Below are positions 13,738 through 56,893 of a DNA stretch of 64,000 nt, in pieces. The stretch covers positions 13,390,543-13,454,542 of the forward strand of contig NC_057749.1 in assembly GCF_004010195.1 (NCBI RefSeq), in the 5' to 3' direction. The DNA is from Chiloscyllium plagiosum. Taxonomy: Eukaryota. The notes under the pieces were generated by a model. The model saw nothing but the letters and a program-made list of their open reading frames with translations, was not told the origin of the DNA and ran no database searches. The translations under genes were made by a program, and so were the position numbers. Each line of letters begins with the position of its first letter. Positions within the stretch are counted from its first letter, which is position 1.

Positions 13738-13894
13738 CAGAAAAATAAACCAAAAAACTGCGGATGTCAGAAGTTTCTAAACTGAAACAAAAACACAACT
13801 GTTCTTAAGAAGAGTCACTGGACCTGAAATGTTCTTCACCACAGATGTTGCCAGATCTGCTGAGTTTCTACAGCAATTTCTGTTTTTGTTTCAG
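13738..13894. mobile_element. Degenerate fold-back PLE cassette with TSD of at least 11 bp
   Basis: catctggttca at 13722-13732 and 13895-13905; inverted ctgaaacaaaaac / gtttttgtttcag. Confidence 0.6.
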
Positions 13895-14823
13895 CATCTG
13901 GTTCAATTAAGTTCTTTAGGGACATTCTTAACCCAACGCTGTCTGGCCTACATGCAAGCACAGACGCACAGCAATGCAATTGACTCTTAATTGACCTCTG
14001 AAATGACCTATCAAGCTACTCAGTTGTATTAATCAGTACATTGAAAGCACTGTGAGTAGACAATGGGCTCACTATGACCTTCCCAAGGGCACTTAGGTTT
14101 GGGAAACAAATGCTGGCTCCTGCCAGTAGTGCTTACATCCCAAAAATGAATATGAAACAAATATGATAGGGCACACTGTCCCCTTGTCAAGTAATACCCA
14201 ATACTAGCTGTTACATACTGAGGTACAACTGAAGCATATTTATTAAGAGTTTTTCAGAAAGTAATCTATTTATGGTGAATTTTGATACCTCAGTTTTTAG
14301 AAATAAGTATGTTTCATCAAATCTCATCACTATCTCCTGCAATCTATTTGTTCCCAAATTCAAAGCTTGCTATCAGTTGAGAGTTACCTCTCTCCAGATC
14401 ATTTCATCTTTGATCTGCAAAATGAGCCCTAGGCTTCCTAATAACAGAAAAACAGAAATGAAAGACTTGTACTTACATAATGTTCTTCATAACTTCAAGA
14501 GATTGCAAACCTTACTTCTTCTTGAACTCCCAAAATAGAGTTACTGTTGCAGAGTGGCAACTGTTTTGTGCACAGCAAGATCCCACAAACTGCAGAGTGA
14601 TAAGGACCAGACAATGTGTTTAATTGATCCTGGTTGAGGACTGGGTTGCTCTGAACTTTTTATTTCTCAGTCTTCTGATTTATTCCTGTGATCGGTATTG
14701 CTGGTTCTTATTTCTTTATTTTTCTAATTCTTTATCCTAAGAACTTGTACTGAAGAATCTGTACCTAGGTACCTTGTTCCTAAGATGGCACCGGAAGTGG
14801 CAACTTCTAAAGTTTTCACTGCA

Positions 14824-15043
14824 CAGTCAGTTCTGCTATAACACATTAGTTCTGTTCTCGTGCAATCTCATGTATAAGAAAATCATGTAACAGCAGTACC
14901 ATTTAAACTAATGGGACCGGGAAATCATGTTATAACCAATACACACTTTAAAATTTTGCACTTTAGAAACAGTGTCCCCAATTAATCAATTGTGTTATAG
15001 TGAAATTGTGTTAACAAAATGCGCATTATAGCAGAATGGCCTG
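14824..15043. mobile_element. Tc1/mariner-Tigger-like MITE inserted in a LINE 3' UTR
   Basis: imperfect TIRs cagtcagttctgctataa / ttatagcagaatggcctg followed by TA; the host tail ttttcactg|...actcatttgagcacatgtgacaataaa resumes after it. Confidence 0.65.
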
Positions 15044-15344
15044 TACTCATTTGAGCACATGTGACAATAAAGCTAATTTAGTGTTAAAACTATTGATGGG
15101 ACATTGGGGAGAACTCACCTACCTTTCTTGGATATAGCTGCATAGAGTCAATTACTTCTACCAGACAGTGCAAACAGGACATTAGGTTAACATTTCATCT
15201 GAAAAATAACACATCTGATGGTACAGAGCACCCTTAGCACTGAATTGGAGTGTTAGTGTATTTAATGCGCATTTGATGATGATCGTTACGATGATTAATG
15301 CAAGTGTCAATCAGTCCTGGATCAGGACTAGAACCAAAGTTAAG

Positions 15345-15920
15345 ATACTTTAGTTAAAACTTTAGTTAGGCCGCATTTGAAATATTGCATGCAGTTCTGA
15401 TCACCACACTACCAGAAGGATGCCAATGCTTTTGAGAGGGTGCAGAGCAGGTTTATCTGGATGTTGCCTGGTCTGGAGGGTTTTTGTTATGAGGAGAGGT
15501 TGGATAAACTCCGACTGTTTTTTCTGAAAAGACAGAGGCTGTTGGGTGACCTGATAAAAGTCTACAAAATTATGAGAGGCACAGATAGGGTGGATAGTCA
15601 AAGGTTTTCTTTTCCCCAGAGTGGAAAGGTCAACTACAAGAAGGCACAAGTTCAAGGTGAGAGGGGAAAAGTTTAGGGGAGAAATGTGGGGAAAATGTTT
15701 CACCCAGAAGGTGGTGGGGTCCTGGAACACACTGTTAGTGGAGGTGGTGGATGCAGGCATGTTAGCAACATTTAAAGTGTATCTTGATAGACACATGAAG
15801 GGGAGGTGAACAGAAGGATAGAAACCACGCATATGCAATAAGTAGCAGATCTAAATAAGGGTTAGGAATCAGCACAGGCTTGGTGGGCCGAAGAGCCTGT
15901 GCCTATGCTGTGTTGTATTG
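15345..15920 (+). mobile_element. CR1 LINE 3' fragment
   Basis: YEERLDKL, GDLIKVYKIM, FTQKVVGSWN; tail-to-tail with the 16170 copy. Confidence 0.85.
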
Positions 15921-16169
15921 CAGTGTGTATTGTATTGGATGTACTGCAGTCTGAGATAAATACAGAAAGTGCTGGAGAAAATTATCAGGTGTGGCAGTAT
16001 CTGTGAAGTAAGAGAAACAGAGTTGATGGTTCCAGTCCAGTATGACTCTTCACAGAATGGTTACAGTACAGAATAATATCATTTAGCCTATTGTTTCTGG
16101 GCCAGCTCTCCAAATCAGCAAGCCCGCTGTAAGTGTTGAAGGTTTGCAGCTTTTATGGTGGGTCTGAGA

Positions 16170-21783: not shown

Positions 21784-21847
21784 NNNNNNNNNNNNNNNNN
21801 NNNNNNNNNNNNNNNNNNNNNNNNNNNNNNNNNNNNNNNNNNNNNNN
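21784..21847. other. Assembly gap (64 N)
   Basis: N run. Confidence 1.
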
Positions 21848-23112
21848 TCCATTTGCCACCTCTCAGCCCAGCTCTGCAGCTTATCTATGTCTCTGTAACC
21901 TACAACATCCTTCACCACTATCCACAACTCCACTGACCTTAGTGTCGTCTGCAAATTTACTAATCCACCCTTCTACACCTTCATCCAGGTCGTTTATAAA
22001 AATGACAAACAACAGTGGACTCAACACTGACCCTTGCTGTACACCACTGGTAACTGGACTCCAGAATGAACATTTCCCATCAACCACCACCCTCTGTCTT
22101 CTTTCAGTAAGGCAATTACTGATCCAAACTGCTATATCTCCCACAATCCCATTCCCCGCATTTTGTAGAATGCCTTGCTGAAATCTATAAATACCACATC
22201 AACCGGCTTACTCTCATCTACCTGTTTGGTCACCTTCTCAAAGAACTCAACAAGGTTTGTGAGGCACGAACTACCCTTCACAAAACCGTGCTGACTATCC
22301 CTAATCAAATTATTATTTTCTAGATGATTGTAAATCCTATCTCTTATAACCTTTTCCAACACTTTACCAACAACTGAAGTAAGGCTCACTGGTCTATAAC
22401 TACCAGGATTGGCTCTACTCCCCTTCTTAAACAGGGGAACCACATTTGCTATCCTCCAGTCTTCTGTCACTATTCCTGTAGAAAATGACGATTTAAAGAT
22501 CAAAGCCAAAGTCTCGGCAATCTCCTCCCTGGCTTCTCAGAGGATCCTAGGATAAATCCCATCCGGCCCAGGGGACTTATCTATTTTCACACTCTGCAGG
22601 ATTTCTAATACCTCTTCCGTGTGAACCTCAATCCCACCCAGTCTAATAGCCTGTATCTCAGTATCCTCCTCGACAACATTATCGTTTCCTAGAGTGAATA
22701 CTGTCGAAAATGTTCAGTTAGTGCTTCCCATATCTCCTCTGACTCCACACACTACTTCCCACTACTATCCTTGATTGGTCCTAATCTTACTCTTGTCATT
22801 CTTTTATTCCTTAAATACCTATAGAAAGCCTTAGGGTTTACCCTGATCCTATCCGCCAACAACTTCTCATGTCTCCTCCTGGCTCTTCTGAGCTCTCTCT
22901 TTAGGTCTCCTGGCTACCTTGTCACCCTCAAGCGCCCTAACTGAGCCTTCAAATCTCATCCTAACAAACCTTCTTCCTCCACTTGACCAGAGATTCCACT
23001 TTGTAAACCACGACTCCCGCGCTGTACAGCTTCCTCCCTGCCTGATAGGTATATACTTATCGAGGACACACAGTAGCCTTACCTTGAATAAGCTCCACAT
23101 TTCTAATGTGCC

Positions 23113-23500
23113 NNNNNNNNNNNNNNNNNNNNNNNNNNNNNNNNNNNNNNNNNNNNNNNNNNNNNNNNNNNNNNNNNNNNNNNNNNNNNNNNNNNNNNNN
23201 NNNNNNNNNNNNNNNNNNNNNNNNNNNNNNNNNNNNNNNNNNNNNNNNNNNNNNNNNNNNNNNNNNNNNNNNNNNNNNNNNNNNNNNNNNNNNNNNNNNN
23301 NNNNNNNNNNNNNNNNNNNNNNNNNNNNNNNNNNNNNNNNNNNNNNNNNNNNNNNNNNNNNNNNNNNNNNNNNNNNNNNNNNNNNNNNNNNNNNNNNNNN
23401 NNNNNNNNNNNNNNNNNNNNNNNNNNNNNNNNNNNNNNNNNNNNNNNNNNNNNNNNNNNNNNNNNNNNNNNNNNNNNNNNNNNNNNNNNNNNNNNNNNNN
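23113..23500. other. Assembly gap (388 N)
   Basis: N run. Confidence 1.
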
Positions 23501-27473: not shown

Positions 27474-27819
27474 GTGAGTAAGAACATAGCAACTACTGTA
27501 CTTGGACAATTATCAGCTAAATAATTTTGAACTAATAATTGATAGTAAAACACACTAGTAATAATAAAATAATTACCGTTATTATTACAGCTAATTAATA
27601 ATAGCCGAGTGAACAGTCTCACTATTATTAAAAAAAACACTTTAAGGTTTTGTCTTTGGCTCAGTGGGACAATGTGGACGACAGTGTGAGAGACTGAGCC
27701 ATGAAGTTCTAGGGATGTCCTAAATGCAATTCCCAAGTTAGCTAATCTCAATCAGAGTGGCAGTGATGCTCCAGTTGATCTTGCTGAGTTATAGAGGGCA
27801 AAAGTCAAAGGATATTCGC

Positions 27820-28802
27820 CACCAGGATCTGTTTTGGGACCACTGCTGTTTGTCATTTTTATAAATGACTTAGACGCAGGCATAGGTGGATGGGTTAGTA
27901 AGTTTGCAGATGACACTAAAGTCGGTGGAATAGTGGACAGTGTGGAAAAATGTTGCAGGTTGCAGAGGGACTTAGATAAACTGCAGAATTGGGCTGAAAG
28001 GTGGCAAATGGAGTTCAATGCAGCTAAATGTGAGGTGATTCACTTTGGGAAGAATAACAGGAAGGTAGAGTACTGGGTCAATGGAAAGATTCTTGATAGT
28101 GTGGATGCGCAGAGGGATCTTGGAGTCCATGTACATAGATCACTGAAAGTTGCAACCCAGGATGATAGTGCTGTTAAGAAGGCATATGGTGTGTCAGGTT
28201 TTAATGGTAGAGGGATTGAGCTCCAGAGCTGTGATGTCATGCTGCAACTATACAAAACACTAGTGTGGCCGCACTTGGAATATTGCGTACAGTTCTGGTC
28301 GCCCCATTACAAGAAGGATATGGAAGCATTGGAAAAGGTGTAGAGGAGATTTACCAGGATGTTGCCTGGTCTGGAGGAAAGGTCTTATGAGGAAAGGCTG
28401 AGAGACTTGGGTCTGTTCTGATTGGAAAGAAGAAGGTTAAGAGGGGATTTAATAGAGACCTATAAGATGATCAGAGGATTAGATAGGGTAGACAATGAAA
28501 ATCTTTTTCCTAGGATGATGACGTCAGCATGTATGAGGGGGCATAGCTACAAATTGAGGGGTGATAGATTTAAGACAGATGTCAGGGGCAGGTTCTTTAC
28601 GCAGAGAGTGGTAAGGGCGTGGAATGTCCTACCTGCCAAAGTAGTTAACTCAGCCACTTTAGGGAGATTTAAACAATCCTTGGATAAGCTAATGGATGAT
28701 GATGGGATAGTGTAGGAGGATGGGCTTAGATTAGTTCACAGCTTGGCGTAACATCGAGGGCCAAAGGACCTGTTCTGCGCTGTGTTGTTCTATGTTCTAT
28801 GA
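27820..28802 (+). mobile_element. CR1/HER1 LINE 3' fragment (RT C-terminal half and 3' UTR)
   Basis: [13 protein letters not shown]...FADDTK...LEYCVQFWSP, in-frame stop, tgttctatgttctatg tail. Confidence 0.92.
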
Positions 28803-29027: not shown

Positions 29028-29179
29028 GACAGTAAGGACTGCGGATGCTGGAAGTCAGAGTCAATAGATGTGAAGCTGGAAAAGCACAGCAAGTCAGACA
29101 GCATCCGAGGAGCAGAAAAGTCAACAGTTTGGGTCAAAACGTTGACCTTCCTGCTCCTCAGATGCTGTCTGACCCGCTA
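29028..29179. mobile_element. Fold-back PLE cassette with collapsed centre, 13-bp TSD (1 mismatch)
   Basis: tagttaactctca 29015-29027 / taggtaactctca 29180-29192; inverted arms gtcagacagcatc... / ...gatgctgtctgac. Confidence 0.7.
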
Positions 29180-29826
29180 TAGGTAACTCTCAACTGACTT
29201 CTGAGGTGGTCTATTGTTGGGTCAATCGCTTTCTGTCCTGCCTGTTGGGTCTCTGAAGCCCTATTCACTGTCTGATGCATCTCCAGGGTGTCTATACATG
29301 TGCTGTGCTCCCCACTGAACCAATTTGCATCCAAGGAGGTCTCAGCATCACCGTCTCAGGGCAAATCAGGCTGGTCAATAAATATCGATGAATAGACCTC
29401 CTGACAATGAATATTAGACAAAATATTCAGTCACATTGCCAACATCTCAGTTTGTTCTTCAGAGGATGCATGATGAATTTTGGCCTGTTGATACACAGGC
29501 TGTCAATCATTGTTGGATCGAAAGCTTGAAGAATTGGAACATTTCTACCATTCAATGAGATTCTGGCTGATCTGTATTTGAACTGCATCCACCATCATCC
29601 ATAATCCATTGTCTAACAAAGCTCTGTCCATCGCTGATTTTGAATCATACAAAATCAGAAATTGCTGGAGAAACTCACCAGGCCCAGCAGCATCTGTGAA
29701 GAGAAAACAGAGCTAACGTTTTGAGTCCAGTGACCCTTTTTCAGAACACTGGCTTAGAATGGTTAATTGAGTCAGCATCCACTGCTCTTTGCAGGAAGTT
29801 GCTTGTTAACTTCTCTCCCTGAATGA

Positions 29827-30043
29827 TGTAGAGATGTTGGTGTTGAACTGAGGTGGACAAAGTCAGAAGTCACACCGCACCAGGTTATGGTCCAATAGGT
29901 TTACTTGAAATCACAAACTTTCGGAGCACTGCTCCTTCCTCAGGTGAAGCCATTTTACCTGACAAGGGGGCAACACTCCGAAAGATTGTGATTTCAAATA
30001 AATCCTATTGAACTACAACCTGGTGTCGTGTGACTTCTGACAA
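29827..30043. mobile_element. Fold-back PLE cassette (third family, older copy)
   Basis: arms about 29862-29946 and 29955-30041, degenerate hammerhead cores on both strands, degenerate TSD tctc(c/t)tgaatga; same family as 48279. Confidence 0.75.
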
Positions 30044-30644
30044 TCTCTTGAATGACCTTGCTCTGTTTTGAGGCTACATCCCTTTTGTCCTAGACTCCCA
30101 TCATCAGTGCAAATACCAGAGCTCAGCTGAATCTATGTCGGTGTGTGGTTTGGAAGGGTACTTGGATGTGATGCACCTGCTACCCTCTGTTGCATTCTTA
30201 TTTATCACAAACATACAATTATATTACAAAGCTTGGAAAAATAATTTTATGGGGATTTTTATTTGAAGATAAGACAACATAGATATTATGATATCTAACA
30301 TAGCGGAGACATATTCAACCTCTATGATTTCTATTCTTTTATGACTCAGAATCACGGGAATAATACATCACATCCTGTCTCAAGGTAGTGATTGGCATCA
30401 GTTTAAGGGGGCACCATCTCTCAATCACATCAGAACCCTCTGGTCCTTCTAGCTATTGGAGGCTGTGTGCTTAGGAGTTTCTGTCAATGGCAGTGTTAAG
30501 GGTGTAGCACACTGCATCTTGTAAATGATACTCACTACATCCATGGACTGCCAGAGAGTAATCATATCAGGTGGTGGATGGAAGCCCATCCAACAGGCTA
30601 CTTGTCATGGATGGTGTCAAGTTCCTTGACTGTTGTTGCAACAT

Positions 30645-30958
30645 CGTCGAGAATGTAGCACTGGAAAAGCACAGCATGTCAGGCAGCATCTGAGGAGCAG
30701 GAGAATCGACGTTTCGGGCATAAGCCCTTCATTAGGAATGAGGCTTGTGGGCTGGGGGGCTGAGAGATAAATGGGAGGAGGGTGGGGTTGGGGGGGAGAT
30801 AGCTGATAAAGCGATAGGTAGATGAAGTTGAGGGAGAAGGTGATTGGTCGGGGAGGGTGGAGCAGATAGATGGGAAAAGTGATGGGCAGGTCAGGAGGGC
30901 GATGCCCATGAGGTGTTCTTCCTCCAGGCATCGGGGTCACCCATCCAGGCAAGTGGAG
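30645..30958 (-). mobile_element. Penelope-like element 3' fragment (GIY-YIG C-terminal remnant, 3' UTR, hammerhead-bearing repeat)
   Basis: minus strand cctggaggaagaacacctc (LEEEHL, typical of the PLE endonuclease C-terminus), C-rich UTR, then cCTAATGAagggcttatgcccGAAACGTC. Confidence 0.7.
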
Positions 30959-31567: not shown

Positions 31568-31570
<3 letters not shown>

Positions 31571-34965: not shown

Positions 34966-35190
34966 GTCAAGAGTGTGGTGCTGGAAGAGCACAGCAGATC
35001 AGGTAGCATCCGAGGAGCAGGAGAATCAACATTCTGGGAATGAGCCCTTCATCAGAAACTTGTCCTGAAGAAGGGCTTATGCCCAAAACGTCAATTCTCC
35101 TGCTCCTTGGATGCTGCCTGACCTGCTGTGCTTTTCCAGCACCACACTCTTGACTCTGACCTCCAGCATCTGCAGTCCTCACATTCTCCT
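34966..35190. mobile_element. Fold-back PLE cassette, 90-bp arms, hammerhead cores on both strands
   Basis: arms 34966-35055 and 35065-35154, then a 36-nt unpaired tail; TSD unclear. Confidence 0.8.
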
Positions 35191-37345: not shown

Positions 37346-38615
37346 ATTTAAAAAAACACCAGTTGTCTATCTCACTTTAATGGGAGAGCAGCCCTATGGT
37401 CTGGTAAGATTGTGGTGACTTCACCATGTCATTATTGAACAGTGAAAGATGCTTCAAGGACTGTGTAGTTCTACTCCTAATTCCCATGTTCATTAAAGCA
37501 AAATAGCTCAGAAGATATCCCTGGCTTCTGTTTATTGAAATTAAAGAGGATAACTTCTATTCTCCAAACTACAGGCAGTAATCCAGCTATTATTCTGAGA
37601 CAAATTATGATTTGATTAATTGCAATTTAAATTGTTGTTGCACTATTACATCTGTGATTAATATTTAACAAGGTGCCACCACGTTGACAATCAATTTTCC
37701 CATGAACAGCAAAGCCCAATGAAGGTTTCCTTCCTTCTGCTAGTTACTGAGCATTGCCTGGAAGTGATTAATACAAAATTACTTTGTACCAAAAGTGATT
37801 GAAATAATATCAATTGATTACCTTGAATATTGGATGAGAGCACGATAATTTATTGCAGCTCATGTTTTTACCAAAGATGTCAAAGCAGGTGAAACCTTTT
37901 CAGAAAGTGTCCCAAGTGATCAGGTTGAAAGGAAAGTATTTTGCATTAACATAGCACCCGCCACCTCCCCAGGCTCTCTCAAAACTCCTCACAGCCAATT
38001 GATTTGATACTGAATTTGAAGTAAAGTTGCTGTTATAATGTGGGCAAATGAGGCAGAGATACAGTCAGAGTCATAGAGTCATACAGCACAGAAACAGACC
38101 CTTTGGTCCAACCAGTCCGTGTCAACTATAATCCCAGACAAAACTAGTCCCACCTGCCTGTGTTTGCCCCATATTGCTCCAACGTTCCTTATCCAACTGT
38201 CTTTTAAATGTTCTAAGTGTACCTGCACTTCCCCGGAAGTTCATCCCACAGTCATTTTGTTTCACAGACAGCAAGATTCCACAAATAGTGGTGAGACAGA
38301 TGATGTTATCATCTATTTAAGTGGGGTAGATGCCAGGAAATGCTGGGAAATATTCAATAGGTTAGAAAGCAGCTATGTGAGGGAATGATGTCAGATTTAA
38401 AGTTTCAGGTCAATGACCTTTCATCAGAAGAAGGACATGTCAAAGATGATCAATTTTTAAGAAAATATTCAGGGCCAGAGAGACAAGAGGGACTGAACAT
38501 GGATATAGAGGTCTGTGTTTGGATGGAGAGCAGCAGAGGTTGATTGTTAATAGGGACAATAGTAAAATGCAAAAAAGGAGGTGACAATGAGACAAGAACA
38601 AAAGAGGTTTTTAAG

Positions 38616-39010
38616 GTTTTTGTGAAGATCTGGAGCTTGGGTTGTGGATGAGGTAGTTGATTAGCTCACCAAGCTGCTGGTTTATCATGCAGACGTTTCA
38701 TTACCGCGCTAGGTAACATCATCAGGGTGAAGCACTGTCATTCTGTTCTGCTTGGTTTTTATGGAGTCTGGTCTGGTGGGCTGAGTGTCACTTTCCAAAG
38801 TATGACAAAGTAACCATTCTAGGACAAGCTAACCAGACACATGCCGAAGAGTTCTTGGAAACCTGGTTTTCAACCAAAAAGACCATCAACAAACACATAG
38901 AGATAGACCCAGTGTACAAACTGCTGCAGAGAAGACCCGGAATTGAGCACGGTAATGAAACATCTACACGATAACCCAGCAGCTCGGTGAGCTAACCAAC
39001 TACCTCAACC
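38616..39010. mobile_element. Poseidon-type PLE fragment with inverted termini, GIY-YIG C-terminal remnant and hammerhead
   Basis: 38801-38946 (+) reads YDKVTILGQANQTHAEEFLETWFSTKKTINKHIEIDPVYKLL; inverted arms about 38649-38710 and 38946-39007. Confidence 0.75.
38688..38728 (-). ncRNA. Minimal hammerhead ribozyme motif
   Basis: minus strand CUGAUGA-u-guuacc(uagcgc)gguaau-GAAAC-GUC; stem I weak. Confidence 0.6.
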
Positions 39011-40123
39011 AGGCAGAGGCAGGAATGGTTACAACGGAATGTCAAAGGTTATTTTGACTAAGGACTGGAGACTGGGTATAACTCAAAGTAAAGTCAAAGT
39101 ACTATGGATTCTGGAGGTTTGAAAGACAAACAGAAAGGTTTCATTGGGTAAGCAATGGTCTAGTGATTTTAGATTTGGGAATCCAGAGACACAAGTAATG
39201 TTGTGCGGATCTAGGTTCATAATCCAGATGGTGAAATTTGAATTCAATAAAAATCTGGAACCATAAATCTAATGGTGACTGTGAAATTGTTGTCAATTTT
39301 TAAATTCTTTGATGGGATGAGGATGTCATTGGCTGGGCCAGCATTTATTGCCCATCCCAAATTGTCCAGAGGGCAGTTAAGAGTCAATCACATTGCTGTG
39401 GGTCTGGAGTCACATCTAGGCCAGACTGGGTAAGGTCAGCAGTTTCCTTCCCTGAAGGACATCAGTGGGCCAAATGGGTTTTTCCAACAATTGTCATTAA
39501 AAACCCATCTGATTCACTAATGCTCTTTAAGGAAGGAAAAACTGTGGTCCTTACTTGGCCTACGTGTGACTCCACACCAACAGCAAGGAGCCTAACTCTT
39601 AACTGCCCCCTGAAATGGCCAAGCAAACCACTGAGTTGTCTCAACCACTACAAAGTCTCAAAATAGGAATGAAAGCAGATGGATCAGCTGATGTCAAATA
39701 GGCAACAGAAAAAATAAAAGGCAAATGCACCCTTGTCAATTATTAAAGCCCACCTTACTGGGGACTAGTGCCAAAATTGGGAGTGCTCGCTTACAGAATA
39801 TTCAAGTAGCAATGTGACATTTGTCCAGAGGAGTGTAAGTTGAAAAGCCTCAACAACAAAACTCTCTTTTCAACTATATTCTGCATTTATGAATGGCTGT
39901 ACATATGAAGGAAAGCCAACATCAGTTTATTAAATATAGCATACTCCAGCTAATATGTACAACGTGGTTAATATAGCACATATAATGCAGTCCCATGTAT
40001 CCAATGCAACAATACAAAATGAAACAACAGAAATTGCTGGAAAAACCCAGCAGGTCTGGCAGCATGTGTTGAGAGAAATCAGAGTTAACGTTTTGGTTCC
40101 AATTACCCATCTTCAGAACGATA

Positions 40124-43146: not shown

Positions 43147-44757
43147 CTGGTTAGAGTCCATGTACCATCCATGTGTCAATAAAGCATAACTTGGTGACAG
43201 GATATCAGCCTCTATGGAGTTATCTCACAACAGCTCACCCCTGTGCTTTCCCAATGTCTCATGAAATGGAACCATCGACCATAATGGATTTTGATCTCAT
43301 CTTCCAGAGCATTCAAGCCCTCTCCTCCTTCAGCACACTTCACCACTCCCGCCCCTCTACCCAATGCCTCATGTTCACTCTGGGGTTGTCAAATGGGGTC
43401 CCCCACACCTCAGCATGGTTGCTGAAGTGACCAAATGATTGGCCTGTTCATTGTGAAACCTCGACTGATTGTGCTCCTGGCAAACACCTTGAGGCACATT
43501 ACAGGCAGGGAGGACTAATGTAAGTGCAAGTCATCATTGCTGGTGCCAAATGCCTCTAGCAGTTACCTAAGCTGAAACAAAGCTCTAGGTGGATCTCATG
43601 GGGTCTGGGTTCACTGGTTAAGAATGGCACTAGATTTGTGGACAACACAACAATAGATGGTGAGGATGGCACAAAGAATCCATAGAGGGATATAGACAGA
43701 TTAAGTGAGTGGGCAAAAACCTGACAGATGGAATATAATGTGGGTGGCATGGTGGCTCAGGGGTTAACACTGCTGCCTTACAGCACCAGGGATCTGGATT
43801 CGATTCTAACCTCAGGCAACTGTCCATGTAGAGTTTGCACATTCTCCCTACGTCTGCATGGGTTTCCTCCAGGTACTCCAATTTCGTCCCGCAATCCAAA
43901 GACGTGTAGGTCAGGTGGATTAGCCATGCTAATTTGCCTGTGGTGTCCGGGGATGTGCAGGCTAGATGGATTAGCCATGGGAAATGTGGGTTAACAGGGT
44001 TGGGATGAGCTGGCTTCTTACTGCTGTTGTTTTTATTGATTTGCTGAGGAGTCAATTTAAAAAGAAATAGCTGACTTCATTCTCAGTGTGGTGTTGCATT
44101 CCAGAAGTGTAAAGTGGAAGCTGATGTTTGTACTTGACTATAGATTTACAATAAAATCTAAGTGTTTTGATGCCTAGTTCACCAGACAAAGGTAAAGTCA
44201 CCATTCTCTTACAGCACCATAGAACTGTTCTCTTAGACAGTCATACAGCACGGAAACAGACTCTTCAGCCTGACCAATCGAAGCCGACCATAATCCCAAA
44301 CTAAACAATCCCACCTGCTTGCTCCTGGACAGAAAGACGATCACCATGCTTTGGGTGAAGGGAGAGTCCTTCATGGTAACCTCAGGCTGTTGAATCCATG
44401 CTGTGGTAACATATTGTATCACAAACCAGCTGTCCAGCCAAGTAAGGCAGCTAACCCCCACCTAGACATCACCTTATGAAATAGCATCCTCTCTATCTCT
44501 CTCTCCTCCTCTCAAGCCCACCACTTTGGAGACACTTCTTCAACTTTTAAAGTCTCATTATGTGGCTCAGTGTAAAATTTTGTTGATAGTCCTCCTGTTT
44601 AACATATTGGGATGTTTCACAATGTTAAATGTTTAAACAAAATGCAAGTTAGTGTTGAACCAGGGCTTGCCAGTTTGGATAGTAAATCCATTCAAGGAGC
44701 TTCTCTATTTGTTAAGCTCTACCCTTTGGACTGCTCAGCTGTGTCCTTTAAACATCC

Positions 44758-44964
44758 TTGAGGAGAAAGTGAGGTCTGCAGATGCTGGAGATCAGAGCTG
44801 AAAATGTGTTGCTGGAAAAGCGCAGCAGGTCAGGCAGCATCCAGGGAACAGGAGAATCGAGTTTTCGGGCATTCCTGAAGAAGGGCTTATGCCCGAAACG
44901 TCAATTCTCCTGTTCCCTGGATGCTGCCTGACCTGCTGCGCTTTTCCAGCAACACATTTTCAGC
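44758..44964. mobile_element. Young fold-back PLE cassette with 14-bp TSD
   Basis: tcctttaaacatcc at 44744-44757 and 44965-44978; arms 44795-44872 and 44889-44966; central CTGAAGAagggcttatgcccGAAACGTC. Confidence 0.85.
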
Positions 44965-46584
44965 TCCTTTAAACATCCCTCCACTGGATTATTTGTATCA
45001 CCGAAAGTATTTGATTATCAACGTCATTCCTGCCCCATTCCCTGATATCTATCCAACTCATTTAGAAAGAGTTAAGTTGTCTCAGACTCCGCTGTTTAGA
45101 CTGCACATCAAATTCATACATAGATTCCTACATTTGAGGTGAGCTAATTATAAACTTACACCTTCCATTTCATAGCATGGGCGAGACACGTTGCAACTGC
45201 ATCATCTGGATCGCTCAACAACTTAATGGCTTCAATCGTGACTGTTCAAAGGTTCAGCAGAAGCAAGTTCTGATTTCATCATAACTTAAAGCCCCAGATC
45301 CACTTGTATCAACCTTCACTACACCCTCCCAAATGCTCAGCCCACTTGGAAGGCCCTTCAAATCAGCAATGCAGCATGCCATTCAGCCCCTCTGGTTTGC
45401 TCTGCCATTCAATAAGATCATGGCGGATCAGATTGTATCGTCAACTGCACCTTCCTGCCGACCACTTTGAATCCCTTGTATGTCAAATATCTATTGGTCT
45501 CTGCCACTCTGGGCAGCACCACAACTGGGTGAAGCAATGAACATTTGTATGTTGCAGTACAATGTCACTACAGCTGCCTATATTAAAAATGGCATTGCCA
45601 CTCTTAATGATGCTGGGCAGCATGATGGCTTAGTGGTTAGCACTGCTGCCTCACAGTTCTAGGGACCTGGGTTTGATTCCAGGCTCGGGCGTCTGTTTGT
45701 TGGAGTTTGCACATTCTCCCCGTGTCTGCGTGGGTGCTCTGGCTTCTCTTACAGTCCAAAGATGTACAGGTCAGGTGGATTGGCCTTGCTAAATTGACCG
45801 TATTGCCCTTGGATGTGAGGGCTAAGTGGGTTAGCCATGAGAAATGCAGGTATACAGGGAAAGAGGAGGGTCTGGTGGATGCTGTACAGAGGGTCTGTGT
45901 CAACATCAATGGGTCTAATGACCTGTTTCTAAACTGTAGGGTTTCTATGATTCTACCCATCTTAAAGATGGCACCATTCACATGCCACAGGCTGAAAATG
46001 AGCTCCGAGGTATTACCAGAAAACTAGGACACATTTGGTTTTCCACTGAGATCCTATTTTGTTTGTTACTGAGTCCTACCTGATGCTCCTTGTTTTAGTG
46101 CAAGATTCCTATGATCATTAAGATATGGTGTTAAATGAGGATATTGGGAAAAGCAACAGATGAAATAAGTGAATACAATATTTCATTGCTTGAGGCCTAC
46201 ACTGAAATCCAGTCCTAACTCTAGTGAGGCTCAGAACAGTTCTGTCTGTCATCACACATTTCCACATCAAACTATATGGATGCAGTGATCTTGAATTTCA
46301 GCCCGCATTGGACAGATGCACACCAGAAAAGTAATCACATGGAAAATGTAAGGTAATTCAGAATAGTCAGCATGGATTTGTTAAGGGAAAATCATGTTGA
46401 ACTAACTTGCTGGAGGTTTTTGAACAGGTAACCGAGAGAGTTGATGAGAGCAGTGCTGTTGATGCGATGTACATGAATTTTCAAAAGACATACAGTACTG
46501 TGCCATATAATAGACTTGCAAGGAAAGTGATAGGTCATGGAATAAAAGGGATAGTAGCAATGTGGATACAAAATTGACCACTTT

Positions 46585-48165
46585 TAGAACATAGAATATA
46601 GAACAGTACAGCACAGTACAGGCTCTTTGGTCCTCGATGCTTTGTCAACATTTTATCCTGCTCTAAAATCAAACTAACCTATATTTTACTATCATCAATG
46701 TGCCTATCCAAAAATCGCTTAAATGTACCAAATGTATCTGACTCTTCCACCACTGCTGGCAGTACATTCCAGGCACCCACCACTCTCTGTGTAAATAACC
46801 TACTTCTGTCATCTCCCTTAAATATTCCTGCAATCACCTTAAAATTATACCCCCTTATGATAGTCATTTCTGTCCTGGGAAAAAGTCTCTGGCTATCCAC
46901 TCAACCTATGTCTCTCATCATCTTGTACACCCCAATCAAGTCACCTCTCATCCTTCTTCTCTCAAATGAAAAAGCCTTATCTCCCCCAACCTTTCTTCAT
47001 AAGACATGCCCTCCAGTCCAGGCAGCATCCTGGTAAATCTCCTCTGCACCCTCTCCAAAGTTTCCACATCCTTACTATAATGAGGTGACCAGAACTGAAC
47101 ACAATATTCCAACTGTGGTCGAACCAGGGCTTTATAGAGCTGCAACATAACCTCGCAGCTTTTAAACTCAATCCCCTACTAATGAAAGCCAACACACCAT
47201 ACACCGCCTTATCAATCCTATCAACTTGGGTGGAAACTTTCAGGGATCTATGGATGTGAACCCTAAGATCCCTCTGTTTCTCCACACTGCCAAGAATCCT
47301 GCCTTCAACCCTGTATTCTGCATTCACATTCGACCTTTCAAAATAAATCACTTCACACTTTCTCAGGTTGAACTCCATCAGCCGCTTCTCAGCCCAGCTC
47401 TGCATCCTGTCAATGTCCCATTGCAACCTACAACAGTCCTCCACACTATCCGCAACTTCACCAACCTTCGTGCCATCGGCAAACTTACTAACGCACCCTC
47501 CCACTTCCTCATCCAAGTCATTTATAAAAATCACAAAGAGCAGTGGTCCCAGAACAGATTTCTGTGGAACACCACTGGCCACCGAGCTCCAGACAGAGTA
47601 CTTTCCATCTATCACTACCCTCTGTCTTCTATGGGCCAGCCAATTATGTATCCAGACTTTCAAATTTCCCTGTATCCCATGCTTCCTTACTTTCTGAATG
47701 AGCCTACCATGGGGAACCTTATCAAACACCTTGCTAAAATCCATATACACCACATCCATTGCTCTATCTTCATCAAAGTGTTTTATCACATCCTCAAAGA
47801 ATTCAATGAGGCTTGCGAGGCATGACCTGCCTCTCACAAAGCCATGGTGACTATTTCTAATCAAGCTATGCTTTTCCAAATAATCATAAATCCTGTCTCT
47901 CAGAATCCTCTCCAATAATTTGCTCAGCACTGACTTAAGACTGATTGGTCTCTAATTCCCAGGGTTATCCTTATTCTCTTTCTTGAACAAGGGAATAACA
48001 TTTGCCACCCTCCAATCATCTGGTACTACTTCAGTGGACAGTGAGGATACAAAGATCATCGCCAAAGGCACAGCAATCTCTTCACTCACTTTCCATAGAA
48101 ACCTTGGGTATATCCCATCTGGCCCAGGGGCCTTATCTATTCTTATGTTTTTCAAAATTTCAAGC
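46585..48165 (-). mobile_element. CR1/HER1 LINE fragment containing the RT domain
   Basis: 317-aa ORF 46977-47930 with YMDFSKVFDKVPH, GVPQKSVLGP, FADGTK; frameshifted at both ends; agaacatagaat tail. Confidence 0.93.
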
Positions 48166-48278
48166 ATATTCTTACCAACTTCTTCAGAGATGTTATTACA
48201 ACTGGAGCAGGTGGGATTTGAACCCAGGCCGTCGAGCTCCAAAGTAGCAGCATTACTGCAGTGATTGTAAGAATGTCA

Positions 48279-48482
48279 TTAAAAATCACACAACACCAGG
48301 TTATAGTCCAACAGGTTTAATTGGAAGCACACTAGCTTTCGGAGCGACGCTCCTTATCACCTGATGAAGGAGCGTCGCTCCGAAAGTTAGTGTGCTTCCA
48401 ATTAAACCTGTTGGACTATAACCTGATGTTGTGTGATTTTTAACTTTGTACACCCCAGTCCAACACCGGCATCTCCAAATCA
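48279..48482. mobile_element. Young fold-back PLE cassette with 13-bp TSD
   Basis: tgtaagaatgtca at 48266-48278 and 48483-48495; 77-bp arms 48279-48355 and 48367-48443 with 2 mismatches. Confidence 0.88.
48358..48392 (+). ncRNA. Minimal type I hammerhead ribozyme motif
   Basis: cac-CUGAUGA-a-ggagc(guc)gcucc-GAAAG-UUA-gug; the opposite arm preserves the probable ancestral GAAAGCUA (palindromic AGCU stem III). Confidence 0.65.
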
Positions 48483-50393: not shown

Positions 50394-50467
50394 TTACCAG
50401 TGCATTCCAGTTTGCGGGGATCATTCACTGGATAAGTCTTGTCATCCTCTCTGTTTTCTTCACTGAG
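50394..50467 (+). CDS. TMEM266: TMEM266 coding exon (S2), 74 nt
   Basis: polypyrimidine tract...gaag|tt acceptor and gag|gtaagc donor; FTSAFQFAGIIHWISLVILSVFFTE (T+TT=Phe); absent from the ORF track. Confidence 0.96.
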
Positions 50468-51917: not shown

Positions 51918-52137
51918 CGGAGAAAGTGAGGACTATAGTGCTGGAAATCAGAGACAAAGAGTGTGGTTCTGGAAAAGCATAGCTGGTCAGGCAGCATCCA
52001 AGGAGCAGGAGAATCGACATTTTGGACATAATACCGAACGTGTTTCGGGAATTTCTAATGAAGGGCTTATGTCCAAAATGTCGATTCTCCTGCTCCTCAG
52101 ATGCTGCCTGACCAGCTATGCTTTTCCAGCACCACAC
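51918..52137. mobile_element. Fold-back PLE cassette with 12-bp TSD, inserted in a CR1 fragment
   Basis: tctaacagagct at 51906-51917 and 52138-52149; arms share variants not seen in the other copies here (catagctggtc/gaccagctatg). Confidence 0.85.
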
Positions 52138-52994
52138 TCTAACAGAGCTAGACAGACTAGATGCAGGAGAAGTTGTTTCCCATGCTTGGAGAGTCTAGAA
52201 CCAGAGATTGCAGTTTGAGGATACAAAATAGACCATTTCGGACTGAGGTGAGGAAAGATTTCTTCACTTAGACGGTGGTCAACCTGAGGAATTTGCTACC
52301 ACAGGAGGCTGGGTTACTAAGTATATTCAAACAAGAGCTCGATAAATTGTTAGATATTAAAGGCATCAAGAGATTTGGAGAGAAACTGGGAATTGAGCAC
52401 TGAGAGAGAGGATCAGCAATAATCAAATTAAATGGTGGAGGAGCTTTGAAAGGTCAAAGAGCCTACTCCTGCTCCTTTCTATGTTTATAAATAGCTTGTC
52501 CACTCTACATAAGCCAAGATCAGGAGTCTCTATGGAGAATATTTAGGCTCAGTGCCCATCCCAGTGAATTCAGTTTATACACTTTGTATATGGCTGTTGA
52601 TTGGAACTGCAGGATTGAACAAACTTCGGGGTAACTTAGCATTTTCACTCACCCTGCTGGTTGAAAATGGTAATGTCACACCGAGGCCCAGTGGGCCATA
52701 ACAGGCTGAGCTGTACACCACAGCCATCTCTCCCCACACCTGATCGGGAAATGCTTTGGGGTTAAAATCGTTGAACTGCATTGTGGCCTCCTGACACTTA
52801 ACGACCTTGTCATGGAGTAGGCTATTTAACTTCTGGTCAATATGACAGAATTTCCTTTCCTCCCCAGAACATAACTCAGAAAAGTCAGAACGTTTATGTC
52901 AGGGAACTGCTCAAAAAAACAGACAGCGCATGTATGCTGTGTAGGTCATGATGCACGGAAAGGCTAAGTCTCTGTTGTGTTCTCTCTCTATCAG

Positions 52995-53051
52995 ACTGTC
53001 TTCAGGATTGTGGTACTTGGCATTTGGGACTATATTGAGAACAAACTGGAG
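52995..53051 (+). CDS. TMEM266: TMEM266 coding exon (S2-S3 linker), 57 nt
   Basis: tctctctctatcag|act acceptor and gag|gtgagt donor; TVFRIVVLGIWDYIENKLE. Confidence 0.96.
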
Positions 53052-54449
53052 GTGAGTTGTGCATTTACCTCAGTGCACGTTTTTGCATGTGTAGCCATGT
53101 CCAAGGTCTAGAACATCAGAACTAGATCAAATATATTACTCTTCATTGAAATTCTTGCCTCTCAACCTGCACAGAAACCAGTGCTGCGTTGCCTGATCTG
53201 TGAGGAAGGAAAACAGTTCATGAGTTAGCAAAGGGTCTTTTCTGTATCCTCCTTGTACAACAGTTACAAGTGCAGGGAAAGAAACAATTTTATATTGTCA
53301 ACATGCCTATGCTATGGCCATCAGTGGCACCAAAAAATGGAATAAGGTAGGCTATTCAGCCCATCTGATTCATACTGCCACTTGAGTAAACTTTGGCTTA
53401 CCTCTTTGCTCTATATCCTGTTTAAAAACCACCATATGTTTCTTTTTAGATTACTTACAGCGTGGAAACAGGCCCTTTGGCCAAATAAGTCCACACCGAC
53501 CATCCAAAGCACGGACCACCCAGACCCATTTCCCTACACCTAACACTACGGGCAATTTAGCACGGCCAATTCACCTAACGCGCACATTTTTGGAAAGTGG
53601 GAGGAAACCGGAGCACCCAGAGGAAACCCACACAGACACGGGGAGAATGTGCAAACTCCACACACAGAGTCACCTTGAGGTGGGAATTGAACCCGGGTCT
53701 CTGGCACTATGAGGCAGCAGTGCTAACCACTGTGCCACCGTGCTGCCCGTTTTGCTTCAGCTGGAAAATGAGAAAGTCAAACAACTTTTGCTTTCAAGGG
53801 ATTCTTGACTGGGGCAGGGATGGCAGAGAGTATCAGGTTAACATCACAACAAGTAACAACTCACCTGGACCAGTTACAGGAGTTGAGGAGGTTGAAGACA
53901 AATTAATCTGGATGTTTTTATTTTCCCTTTTTGGCCTAGGTTTTTTAAAATACCCTCCTGGGAGATGACATGATAGGTATAAGAAGTGGGAGTGAGTCAT
54001 GAGTACAGTCTATTATCATGGTGTTAGGGCAGGCTCAAAGAGAAAATGGGATCTTTCCCTGTCCATGTATGTACATTTCGCATGTATGTACATTTCATCA
54101 CCAGGTATTTGACCATGTAGCTGGGATTTGACCACTGACCTCAGACTGAGGAAGGTCCCAATCAGAGGTGTAAAGCCAGAGATAGGACTTTGTGCAGATG
54201 GGACTGTTGCATTTTTTGTGTACCACCCCAAACCTTTCACTCACCCAGCAGGAATGGCTAAGTCTAGGATCCAACCCAATCCTGGAACTGATTCCATTGG
54301 AAAAGCAATGTGATTATACATCTCCATTGGGTCGAGCAGCCAATCACGTTTCCATGGAGATGTATGCTGCTGAGTTCTTGCAAGGAAGAACACCATGGAT
54401 ACAAGCAGGAGGAAGGAATAATGACGGAGACGAAGTAACATTTGCCTTT

Positions 54450-54770
54450 ATCACACACGGGAACAGGCATATATACAGAAAAACACACATATGGATTCAC
54501 ATACATACAAGCACACACACAACCATACACACAGGAACAGATATATTCACAGAAAAATGCACACTCACATAAAACACATGCCCAGACTCACACACACATA
54601 TACTCAGAAAAACAACACAGAGGCACAAACGCAAAACTGTATGCATGAAAATGACATACACAGAATCATATAGACTCAGACAAACACACACAAAAGGGCA
54701 GAGATGTACAGATAGAAAAACACGCGTACATGCAAAACACGTGTATAGGAACACACACACACACACACGC
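54450..54770. repeat. CA-rich low-complexity tract ending in (CA)n
   Basis: direct reading. Confidence 0.8.
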
Positions 54771-56657
54771 CTTCCATCCATGTTTGAGTCAAATCTCAAT
54801 CCCATTTCAGAAAGAAAACGATATGATAACGCAGTGTGTTGCCTGTTCTCAAAATAATTCTGTAAGAAATCATTAATAGAAAGCAAGCTATGCTAAGCAG
54901 CCCTGCTGCAATGGTAAATTGGCACTGTGCTCATTAACAATACGTCCAGAGTTACAATTCGTAGTTAACTGAGACTCGCTTGTTGACCCCAGCTTGAAGT
55001 GGTGCATGGGGATAATTATACACCACAGGACATTAAACCGAGTGGCTGTTTCCCTGTTCATTCTTCTCTGCTTAAATGTGTCTCAGTGTAAACACAGCAG
55101 CTTTAACTTAATAATGAAAAGAAAAGCTGCAAAGCCTAGAGATCAGAGTTCAAAACAAGAAAATGCTAGAATTTTTAAAAATTGTTCCTGGGATGTAGGT
55201 GTCACTGTCTGGGCCAGCATTTATTGCCTGCCCCTACTTCCCCTTTAGAAAATCATGTGAGCTGCCTTCTTAAACCGCTACAGTCCATGTGCTGTAGGTA
55301 AATCCATAATACTGCTAGGGAGGGAATTCCAGGATCTTGACCCAGCAACAGTGAAGAAACATTCCCAAGTCAGGATGGTGAGTGGCTTGGAGGGGAATTT
55401 GCAGTAGGTGGCTTTCTCATGTGCCTGCTGCCCTTGTCTTTAACACAAAAGTGGATTGCACATCAGCTTGGGTTTGCTTCCTCTCCCAGCTTGCTTTGTG
55501 GATAGCAGACCATGTAAAAGAAGATGAGCAAAGTATGGGTGTGTCCCTGACTCAGTCTTATACATCTATCCATCCCACGTGTCTATAGCCACCCACTGAC
55601 CCATTTACCCACTCACTCATTTAGGAGGAGGTGGTGGCCTGTTGGTCCAGGTAATTAATATTTTCGGGACCTGGTGTAGATGGAATTTGAATTCACTAAA
55701 AAAATTAGTATCTAATAATGACCATGAGTCCATTGCTCTAGTTTGGTTTGGTTTGGTTTGGTTTTTAGCAGGCTGGCTGTTCACTGAAAGCAGTCATTCA
55801 GTTTGAGGCTGCTGGACCAAGAAACAGCTACTTGGAAGAAAGTTTTCCATGCTGAATCCCTTTGCTGTCCCTCTCTCTCTCTCCCCTGTAAGACTCTGTG
55901 TTTGATTTTTCCTTTTTTGCCAAGGGGTGTTTATGGGAGTTGTTGCAAGCATTTGGAACAGCATCATTAAGTTGAGATAATCTATTGGGTTTTAGGATAG
56001 ACTAAGTTATTTTTTATACTGTTCTCTTTTCGTTCAGTAATCTTGTAAATAAATTCTATTTTATTTAAAACCGAGTGGTTTGACAAACTGCATCACTTCT
56101 GGAATATCCATGCTACACCTGCCTAAAACATCTCGCAAAGTTAGGGTCTGCATTTCTTTCTTGAAATGTTTTGAGGGGGTCTGACCTGATCCATAGCACT
56201 AGCCTACATGTAACTCCATACCCTCAGCAATGTGGTTGACTCTTAAATGCTCTCTGGGCAATTAGGAATGGGCAATAAGTGCTGCCTGGTCAGCAAAGCC
56301 CTCATACCATGAGTGAATACAAAAAAAACCCATGGGCAACCAAACATTCACAATCTCTTTAAAATCCATGGGCATCAATCGCAAGACCCAGGATTTTTTG
56401 CCCATCCTTATTTGCTCTGGAACTGATTGGTTTGTAAGTGCCATTTTAGAGGACAACTAAGATTGCTGAGGGTGTGGAGTCACATGAGGACCAGACCAGG
56501 TAAGAACAGCAGATTTCCTTCTCTAAAGGACATTAGTGAACCAGATGGACTTTTACAACAATTCATCATCATCACCATCATCATCACTGAGACCAGCTGT
56601 CAATTCCAGATTTATAATTTGAATGTCAATTCCACCAGACGCCCTCAGAACATTAAA

Positions 56658-56893
56658 ATAAAAGCAAATTACTACAGATTCTGGTAGTCTGAAAGAAACA
56701 CAGACAATGTTGGAGAAACTCAGCAGGTCTGCTATCATCTGTGAAGGAAGAAGCAGAGTTTTGAATCCGATGTGACTGTTCTTCACAACTGTTCTGAAAG
56801 GGAGTTCATACCAGACTCAGAATATTAACTTTGTTTCTCTCTCCATAGATGCTGCCTGACCTGCTGATTTTCTCCAACATTGTTTGTGTTTGT
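56658..56893. mobile_element. Older fold-back PLE cassette (second family) with 15-bp TSD
   Basis: cctcagaacattaaa at 56643-56657 and 56894-56908; inverted caatgttggagaaa / tttctccaacattg. Confidence 0.75.

Follow-up and report, generated by a model that had tools for sequence, protein, structure and literature searches.

Fold-back hammerhead cassettes in the shark Chiloscyllium plagiosum derive from Penelope-like elements and are probably formed anew at each insertion

Nine short inserts that fold back on themselves, most of them about a hammerhead ribozyme motif, lie in a stretch of 64,000 nucleotides of the Chiloscyllium plagiosum genome (assembly GCF_004010195.1, contig NC_057749.1, positions 13,390,543 to 13,454,542 of the forward strand), the whole of which is called the window here. 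They are named by their approximate starts in the window: 13738, 29028, 29827, 34966, 38616, 44758, 48279, 51918 and 56658. A first reading made from the letters of the window, hereafter the sequence-only reading, took them for a class of ribozyme-delimited retro-inserts that derive from several families of Penelope-like elements (PLEs) and resemble miniature inverted-repeat transposable elements (MITEs). It left two options: the cassettes could be independently mobile hairpin RNAs, or they could arise anew at each insertion. PLE insertions have been described with an adjoining inverted 5'-truncated copy and a one-sided tail of 30-40 bp (PMC8557442; PMC3846280). The question raised by this locus is which of the two options applies, and it was addressed in the window and by searches of the source genome of 3.56 Gb. 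We consider it very probable that the cassettes are ordinary by-products of PLE integration, made anew at each insertion; the heterogeneity of their central junctions, and the microhomology found at them, favour this option over independently mobile hairpin RNAs.

Architecture and Penelope-like origin of the cassettes

Inverted repeats were sought by a repeat search of the window at the nine noted sites. Arms of 44-90 nt, 80-97% complementary, were present at eight of the nine; no long inverted repeat was found at site 13738, which consists of a sense copy and a ~60-nt tail-bearing inverted stub, the outermost part of an inverted arm only. The description of all nine as long inverted repeats therefore holds for eight. 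The inserts had also been called non-coding, which does not apply to 38616: its sense part or spacer encodes the C-terminal 61 amino acids, that is, the last 61 codons, of a PLE endonuclease open reading frame (ORF). The right ends of 34966 and 48279 had been placed short because their tails of ~35 nt were overlooked, and BLAST against the window puts them at ~35190 and ~48482. By BLAST against the window the nine cassettes fall into four families (A-like, B, C and D), as many as the minimum that the sequence-only reading had counted. The RNA fold of 44758-44966 is predicted to be a near-perfect stem of ~80 bp with the hammerhead buried in it, at -165 kcal/mol compared with -67 ± 4 in 200 shuffles (z = -22).

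Target-site duplications (TSDs) vary in length, being 9-15 bp in seven of the nine window cassettes and 13-16 bp in the genomic loci L002-L007 and L038. Of the earlier claim that seven sites carry TSDs of 11-15 bp, the number stands approximately, with six or seven sites bearing TSDs, five of them perfect; the range does not, since it is 9-15 bp.

Judged by sequence comparison, the arms are the 3'-terminal pseudo-long terminal repeat (pseudo-LTR) part of PLEs that encode a reverse transcriptase (RT) and a GIY-YIG endonuclease, and at least three PLE lineages contribute cassettes. Peptide searches, the reading of loci and protein relatives all bear out the proposal that the arms are PLE termini and not the terminal inverted repeats of DNA transposons. 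A genome search with the peptide of 38616 scored 150 matches out of 46,497 first-look candidates. Longer relatives of family C have a GIY-YIG/CCHH motif followed by the hammerhead and then by ~80 nt that end as the 38616 arms do at their outer ends. A second lineage, the alpha-type, shows the order ORF end, 3' untranslated region (UTR) of ~250 nt, hammerhead, arm of ~65 nt and tail of ~35 nt, and its peptide gave 82,323 first-look candidates in the genome search. The 3' end of this alpha-type lineage is homologous to the A-like arms without being identical to them; in longer copies of family A the hammerhead is preceded by a similar 3' UTR, and the copy at L068 abuts an apparent element body. 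The alpha C-terminus (187 amino acids) matches the Pfam GIY-YIG domain weakly (18.4 bits, with a cut-off of 22.6) and, across 94% of its own length, shares 47% identity with a protein of 894 amino acids. This relative scores 23.6 bits for GIY-YIG, above the cut-off, and 24.9 bits for RVT_1, below the cut-off of 29.6, yet RVT_1 is listed among its precomputed domains. The alpha C-terminus also has an identity of 83% to a bamboo-shark protein bearing both RVT_1 and GIY-YIG.

Longer copies share the plan of the short ones. In the long copy at locus L038 the inverted 5' copy bears the tail, the sense copy lacks one and the TSD is 16 bp, and L036 has a direct upstream partial copy (pseudo-LTR) that runs from 14 nt 5' of the hammerhead through arm and tail into the body. 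An inverted 5'-truncated copy is thus present at full length in L038, in eight of the nine window cassettes and in 13 of 27 sampled insertions.

The hammerhead was examined by a strict scan for the CUGANGA-helix II-GAAA core. Intact cores lie at or beside the centre in three of the nine cassettes (44875(+), 48361(+) and 29943(-)); a further one lies in the inverted arm of 38616 (38725(-)), and two more sit in single-arm copies in the window. The central cores are point-mutated in 34966 (GAAA to AAAA), 51918 (CUGA to CUAA) and 56658. The symmetry centre falls on or beside a hammerhead, intact or mutated, in these three plus three cassettes, and the generalization does not extend to 29028, which keeps a GAAAC-proximal remnant only, or to 13738, where the junction is at the 5' edge of a decayed core. 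Mutated cores in the old copies 34966, 51918, 56658 and 13738 are as expected for decay after insertion. Families A, alpha, B, C and D share the conserved core C3-U4-G5-A6-N7-G8-A9, G12-A13-A14, A15.1/U16.1 and H17. None has a stable helix III, and positions 15.2-16.2 are palindromic, A-CG-U in A, alpha, C and D and A-GC-U in B. Compared across families by eye, with no covariation statistic, helix II is maintained through compensatory changes: GGGC/GCCC in A and alpha, GGAGC/GCUCC in B, GGGUC/GAUCC in D, and in C GUUACC/GGUAAU, which is GUCACC/GGGGAC in L022 and L024 (a U-A to C-G change).

A covariance-model scan had been suggested as a check, and the Rfam models found no hammerhead in the nine-cassette window, either at gathering score or at E <= 10, a miss that is expected if the models require helix III. 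Sub-threshold Rfam matches to microRNA (miRNA) precursor families were obtained at 48272-48453, 51999-52099, 44835-44926 and 29078-29189 (at most 89 bits, with a gathering score of 249); they arise because the cassettes are perfect hairpins, and automated miRNA finders would probably flag them. A fifth type of core, intact and with helix II AGGUC/GACCU, was also seen at 38395-38430 (-), 190 nt from cassette 38616, and is probably another PLE 3' fragment.

Abundance, central junctions and the one-tail rule

The class proved to be as abundant and as stereotyped as had been supposed. The 36-mer of the family A hammerhead has 28,555 exact matches in the genome and the 35-mer of the family B hammerhead has 5,376, and the reversed-pattern controls gave 0 in both cases; the same counts confirm that the core is conserved within families. 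Head-to-head junctions were matched genome-wide 7,753 times for family A, with a pattern made of an inverted-arm anchor and a sense hammerhead with 0-30 nt between them, and 758 times for family B. Read sets of five organisms hold 13-56% of the words sampled from 44600-45120, and this repeat family is therefore common to related species. A contig from one such organism runs without a difference across the right junction of 44758 and on into unique flank, and the 44758 insertion itself is present in at least one other data set.

Whether identical central junctions recur at many loci had been put forward as the test between the two options. The junctions are mostly unlike between loci, with ~68 distinct strings counted by hand among the 100 family A rows listed. 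The most frequent strings before the joint in these rows were GCATAAGC (9 of 100), CTTCTTC (8), CCCTTC (7) and GCATAAGCC (4); the junction type of window cassette 44758, GGGCAT/TC with the slash at the joint, accounted for 4 rows, and forms with two hammerheads for 12. Each recurrent family A class marks a point where 1-3 nt (TTC, CAT or CC) are common to the inverted arm and the sense start CATTC-CTGAAGA. Among short-gap junctions the strings CGACGTTTC and CGACGTTC lead, together in ~40 of the 100 rows listed of 280 matches, and the leading class of family B (~17 of 100 rows listed) is the one with the longest microhomology (ATCA). The junctions cluster at microhomologies of 2-4 nt, and identical junctions recur because joining favours a few of these.

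The outer end of each arm falls at one of two fixed points ~35 nt apart, and the intervening sequence of 30-44 nt is the tail. All nine window cassettes have exactly one tail per insertion. The first 30 genomic places include 13 fold-backs, of which 12 follow this rule and the remaining pair (L065/L066) is unscored. In L001-L008, which have an identical junction, the tail is on the left arm in seven loci and on the right arm in one. In the majority sequence of these eight loci the arms are perfectly complementary, with no shared arm-specific substitutions except at CpG sites. We conclude that the central junction is made at each insertion, because the junctions are heterogeneous and lie at microhomologies, the tail can be on either arm and no private substitutions are shared.

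In four of the five family examples that were folded (A, alpha, C and D) the tail is predicted to pair with a region of the arm upstream of it. The pairs, which differ in sequence from family to family, include GGAUGCUG/CAGCAUC and AGCUUGG/CCAAGCU. The mutated family B copy of the window folds differently, and its arm-tail complementarity was read by eye. The inner RT end point falls in the loop enclosed by this pairing in L047:1529-1632, in L036, at window positions 13400-13496 and at 38616-38691 (-).

The other end of the arm is also constrained. Among 27 distinct insertions with a whole hammerhead, ~18 start no more than 6 nt 5' of CUGAAGA (one is at -13), and the remaining 9-10 continue into the 3' UTR. 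The longer arm of a fold-back usually ends 0-5 nt 5' of the hammerhead, and in the family A rows with a gap of at most 15 nt (n=19) the sense part never exceeds 6 nt. These start positions and short-gap rows place the stop of the longer arm at the hammerhead's 5' edge rather than at its cleavage site, so that the term ribozyme-delimited is apt only in a loose sense. Junctions at the predicted cleavage site made up 7 of the 100 short-gap rows listed and are confounded by a TC microhomology. At one locus, L035 on contig 6, a long element is preceded by a partial copy of arm plus tail that begins at the predicted cleavage site and is joined to a piece of the element's 5' body; it is a single case.

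A G that is templated by neither arm nor parent stands directly before ATTC at no fewer than five family A loci and in two of the short-gap rows, and directly before ACAATCAC at four or more family B loci. Reverse transcription of a cap is reported to leave an extra G in studies of LINE-1 (long interspersed nuclear element 1). The extra G and the fixed stop hint at a capped transcript that starts at the 5' edge of the hammerhead. The sequence TCATTC resembles the initiator consensus, and in both A and alpha it is preceded, at a distance of ~30 nt, by a TTATCT motif. In a poly(A) single-cell RNA run, 1,540 of 12.96 million records cover the arms, 99% of them continuing into unlike sequence, and 110 reads run into parent-type 3' UTR upstream of the hammerhead. 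The joints listed in this run are skips, with no sign of a discrete or circular RNA, and a poly(A) library would miss small circles that are not polyadenylated.

Integration mechanism and competing explanations

We propose that the pseudo-LTR promotes a capped transcript beginning with the hammerhead, in which the RT start region would lie ~95-130 nt downstream of the transcript's 5' end; with the start region so near that end, the complementary DNA (cDNA) would be very short. Reverse transcription would be primed from both of the 3' ends that a staggered double nick leaves in the target, the stagger accounting for TSDs of 9-16 bp. Each arm would then be a cDNA that extends from the hammerhead 5' edge of the pseudo-LTR to one of the two fixed RT start points, and there would be exactly one tail per insertion because only one of the two arms reaches the outer point, its partner stopping at the inner one. 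The two like-sense cDNAs would be joined head to head where 2-4 nt pair, and the hammerhead would be central because it comes first on the template, not because of cutting. Dual priming at both target strands is the most likely route on this analysis, and a capped pseudo-LTR transcript is the most likely form of the template that starts at the hammerhead. A finished cassette holds no sequence beyond the start points of the full element, and is therefore probably immobile and dead on arrival.

Several points weigh against this account. Priming at both strands is taken from a single in-vitro study, made on a lizard element. The presence of RT and endonuclease in one ORF is seen through relatives and fragments only; Pfam GIY-YIG scores of the genomic fragments are 13-18 bits, under the curated cut-off of 22.6, and a genome-wide Pfam GIY-YIG search gave one weak match only. 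Neither 34966 nor 38616 has a convincing TSD. The junctions were tallied by hand over the first 100 listed places, on contigs 1-8, and the tallies are conditioned on exact anchor words and short gaps; the sample for the 5' stop consists of whole-hammerhead copies, and ends that fall 3' of the hammerhead lie outside the count. The arm 36-mer has a count of 25,155, which is not comparable with the hammerhead count because subfamilies differ in the arm. No hot spots of read begins or ends were seen in the RNA run, a single 3'-biased poly(A) single-cell run. Finally, no autonomous parent was found for family B, of which one longer locus was read (L069, 1.4 kb, on contig 1). This locus has two inverted B copies, each reaching the same point ~170 nt 5' of the hammerhead, that flank ~830 bp, the first ~660 bp of which are a decayed ORF fragment of an alpha-type PLE. 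The structure may be a template switch between RNAs, and it may leave room for family B as a non-autonomous unit.

The rival that survives best requires no priming by a second target end: a single cDNA would fold on a palindrome, in helix II or in helix III (ACGT/AGCT), and prime itself, after which the hairpin strand would be copied. Palindromes at inverted PLE junctions have been interpreted as self-priming (PMC3846280), the junctions lie in the most self-complementary part of the template, and two-hammerhead forms with the near-perfect palindrome CAGGAATTCCTG do occur. Self-priming, however, predicts equal outer ends, and the scored fold-backs of the window and of the genomic sample combine one inner with one outer end point. 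Tail-only inverted stubs (24-31 nt; L052 and L063) offer nothing to fold on, junction hot spots are as frequent outside helix II as within it, and both strands are extended in vitro (PMC11167929). We regard self-priming as unlikely.

A lower probability still is given to independently mobile, non-autonomous hairpin RNAs of a retrozyme-like or SINE-like (short interspersed nuclear element-like) kind, whose transcript would cover the whole unit and be copied in trans by proteins of PLEs. Such units would explain why the whole 172-bp fold-back at 44795-44966, centre included, recurs at 40 loci or more with 97-99% identity, sharp ends and TSDs. Recurrent junction forms, at most 9 of 100 rows listed in A and ~17 of 100 in B, point in the same direction, as does the shared 5' boundary of both family B arms in L069, and a preprint argues for an origin of animal retrozymes from PLE pseudo-LTRs (10.64898/2026.07.22.740005). 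Against these stand the variety of junctions already described, the coincidence of the recurrent ones with microhomologies, the small share of the window type (4 of 100 rows listed), the occurrence of one junction with the tail on either arm, and the complementarity of the L001-L008 arms with no substitutions of their own save at CpG sites. Furthermore, the RNA of such a unit is predicted to fold into a stem of ~80 bp that buries the hammerhead, its template would, by analogy with the anole element, need sequence 3' of the start sites that is absent from the cassettes, and no discrete RNA ends were seen in the one poly(A) single-cell run. It is just as improbable that a subset, either the commonest junction classes or family B, now consists of self-propagating hairpin retro-elements, an inverted counterpart of retrozymes that PLE proteins would copy in trans. 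If this were true, the mobile unit would be an RNA hairpin of ~80 bp, perfectly paired and with the hammerhead buried in it, and probably a substrate of small-RNA pathways.

The last candidate is a MITE origin, in which the cassettes would have arisen by deletion from a DNA transposon and would be mobilised by a transposase acting on their terminal inverted repeats. It was rejected and has a negligible probability: long terminal inverted repeats, small size, high copy number, flanking duplications and weak Rfam matches to plant MIR hairpin families agree with it, whereas TSDs of 9-16 bp within one family, asymmetric ends with a 35-nt tail on one side, the common occurrence of single-arm copies with the same ends and TSDs, and arms that are the 3' ends of elements with RT/GIY-YIG ORFs do not. 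Some plant MIR hairpin families are themselves thought to be MITE-derived. The separate MITE-like class of the sequence-only reading is thus replaced by integration by-products of PLEs, of which the cassettes are the short end of a known spectrum of insertion structures.

Window features, known systems and significance

Table 1. Cassettes and single-arm copies in the window. Families of the nine cassettes are from BLAST against the window; arms are given as start, length and complementarity; a slash marks the joint of a junction.
Position (strand)	Family	Form and tail	Hammerhead and junction	Inverted-repeat arms	TSD
13733..13895 (+)	D	Inverted stub with tail (~13733-13803), then sense copy	Sense copy from decayed hammerhead (13804-13834)		ATCTGGTTCA, 10 bp, perfect, at 13723-13732 and 13896-13905
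29028..29179 (+)	A-like	Fold-back, old; tail on left inverted arm	Both arms cut at GAAAC-proximal part, without CUGANGA or helix II; junction ~29131-29134	29088, 44 nt, 84%	13 bp, 1 mismatch
29827..30046 (+)	B (B-like)	Fold-back, old, two-hammerhead type; tail on left arm	Intact core on - strand (29943 down to 29913); decayed core on + strand (~29959-29984)	Reported at 29900 and 29862	9 bp, 1 mismatch, weak
34966..35190 (+)	A-like	Fold-back, two-hammerhead type; tail on right sense arm (~35155-35190)	Sense core 35065-35092, GAAA to AAAA; inverted core decayed, ~35036-35056	34966, 90 nt, 88%	
38616..39011 (+)	C	Inverted copy with tail; longer, 5'-truncated sense part with PLE GIY-YIG ORF end (38789-38971), no tail at end	Intact hammerhead on - strand (38725 down to 38692)	38645, 66 nt, 88%, 235 nt separating arms	
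44758..44964 (+)	A (A-like)	Fold-back, young; 38-nt tail in left inverted arm (44758-44795); right arm stops at tail-less end point	Junction GGGCAT/TC ~44868-44874; intact minimal hammerhead 44875-44902, predicted cleavage after 44902	44795, 78 nt, 96%	TCCTTTAAACATCC, 14 bp, perfect
48279..48482 (+)	B	Fold-back, young; tail on right arm (~48445-48482)	Intact hammerhead 48361-48389; the family's palindromic AGCU is AGUU in this copy	48279, 77 nt, 97%	TGTAAGAATGTCA, 13 bp, perfect
51918..52137 (+)	A-like	Fold-back with compound junction; tail on left arm	Extra partial inverted hammerhead piece 52033-52054, then sense core 52055-52082, CUGA to CUAA	51958, 74 nt, 96%	TCTAACAGAGCT, 12 bp, perfect
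56658..56893 (+)	D	Fold-back, old; tail on left arm	Hammerheads decayed in both arms (sense copy ~56794-56829)	56696, 65 nt, 82%	CCTCAGAACATTAAA, 15 bp, perfect
13366..13492 (+)	D	Single-arm copy with tail	Starts at 5' edge of near-intact hammerhead (13370)		
9885..9979 (-)	D	Single-arm copy	Starts at 5' edge of intact core (9976, - strand)		
30646..30740 (-)	A-like	Single-arm copy	Reaches ~10 nt 5' of decayed hammerhead		
1132..1208 (-)		Single-arm copy resembling alpha-type parent	Cut within hammerhead at helix II		

The coordinates of the cassettes and of four single-arm copies, which BLAST against the window found among others, are collected in Table 1. The ORF at 46980-47951(-), beside cassette 48279, was considered as its parent and rejected, being part of a CR1/jockey-type LINE that is unrelated to the cassette. 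This RT ORF (46980-48275 (-), 324 amino acids, RVT_1 E = 2.9e-22) directly adjoins 48279, and its best named relatives are CR1-like proteins of sharks, turtles and birds. Further ORF fragments with RVT_1 matches lie at 27795-28340 (+) (E = 1.6e-09) and 22135-22536 (-) (E = 3.5e-13). Nested inverted repeats with arms of 57 and 41 nt, at 39367-39612 and 39443-39539, belong to another repeat family and contain no PLE arm by BLAST; a similar sequence is found upstream of the element in L038. The window also holds two runs of N, at 21784-21847 and 23113-23500, with 452 bases in total.

Canonical PLE insertions (Craig et al. 2021; Arkhipova et al. 2013) share with the cassettes the inverted truncated copy, the tail at one end, TSDs of variable length, a hammerhead in the pseudo-LTR, heavy 5' truncation and a self-complementary inverted junction. 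They differ in that here both copies are reduced to ~70-135 nt, so that the whole insert is a hairpin of 150-230 bp without an ORF, the cut point is fixed at the 5' edge of the hammerhead, and the copy number reaches tens of thousands.

The purified anole PLE studied by Frangieh et al. 2024 (Poseidon PAc; PMC11167929) cuts both target strands, extends each of them and starts reverse transcription at two internal sites on either side of the tail. The shark families resemble it in having two adjacent RT start points with the tail between them, a hammerhead ~100 nt 5' of these points and a stem-loop at the start region, represented here by the predicted arm-tail pairing; furthermore, cutting and extension of both strands would give head-to-head copies. 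The PAc ORF starts inside the hammerhead, whereas here the frame opened by that ATG ends after 17 codons and a 3' UTR of ~250 nt precedes the hammerhead. The PAc data are, in addition, reaction products, whereas the joining at microhomologies and the one-tail rule were read here from finished genomic insertions.

LINE-1 twin priming is a further point of comparison. There, both ends of a staggered break prime, the cDNAs join at a microhomology and an inverted 5' part results. The second primer anneals within the same RNA, so that the inverted and direct parts do not overlap. In the cassettes, by contrast, the two arms span one and the same stretch and share their start region.

Minimal type-I hammerheads of PLEs have been reported as opposite-strand pairs 100-700 bp apart, and also in truncated PLEs (Cervera and de la Pena 2014; PMC4209133). 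The motifs described here agree with them in the CUGANGA...GAAA core, the unpaired base before helix II, the short helix I, the lack of a real helix III, the palindromic positions 15.2-16.2 (CG or GC), which imply dimers, and the massive numbers. They differ in that the two motifs of a pair can be 5-30 nt apart or merged into one, and in that helix II has 4-6 bp, compared with 7-8 bp in the flatworm families of PMC4209133.

Retrozymes are direct tandem repeats that yield circular RNAs, whereas the cassettes are inverted pairs bounded by TSDs. Tandem direct hammerhead units were not seen at the nine sites, and an identity with retrozymes was rejected for both reasons. Animal non-LTR retrozymes were treated in earlier work by Cervera and de la Pena. 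Vertebrate retrozymes, with tandem forms, are the subject of a preprint by Li, Clavereau and Pollet (2026; 10.64898/2026.07.22.740005). The likeness lies in their being short, non-coding, hammerhead-bearing derivatives of PLE pseudo-LTRs, abundant in vertebrates other than birds and mammals, including one cartilaginous fish.

The architecture itself has thus already been described for PLEs, and what is new are the shark families, their abundance and the junction spectrum. In the accessible parts of the literature on PLEs and hammerheads we found no description of a dominant short hairpin form, of its junction spectrum or of the shark families. For annotation, tens of thousands of hairpins of 150-230 bp with TSDs would be miscalled as MITEs, miRNA precursors or unclassified repeats; such hairpins in shark genomes belong to PLEs. 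PLE integration is known from one in-vitro study, and the thousands of finished junctions available here fit priming at both strands from two start sites. Three rules can be read from them: one tail per insertion, head-to-head joining at microhomologies, and a 5' stop at the hammerhead edge with an occasional extra G. If the stop is the start of a capped pseudo-LTR transcript, the excess of short cassettes would be explained, since the sole competent start region would lie ~100 nt from the 5' end of the transcript. The known picture of PLEs is left unchanged by these results; it is extended to cartilaginous fish, together with a data set on which it can be tested.

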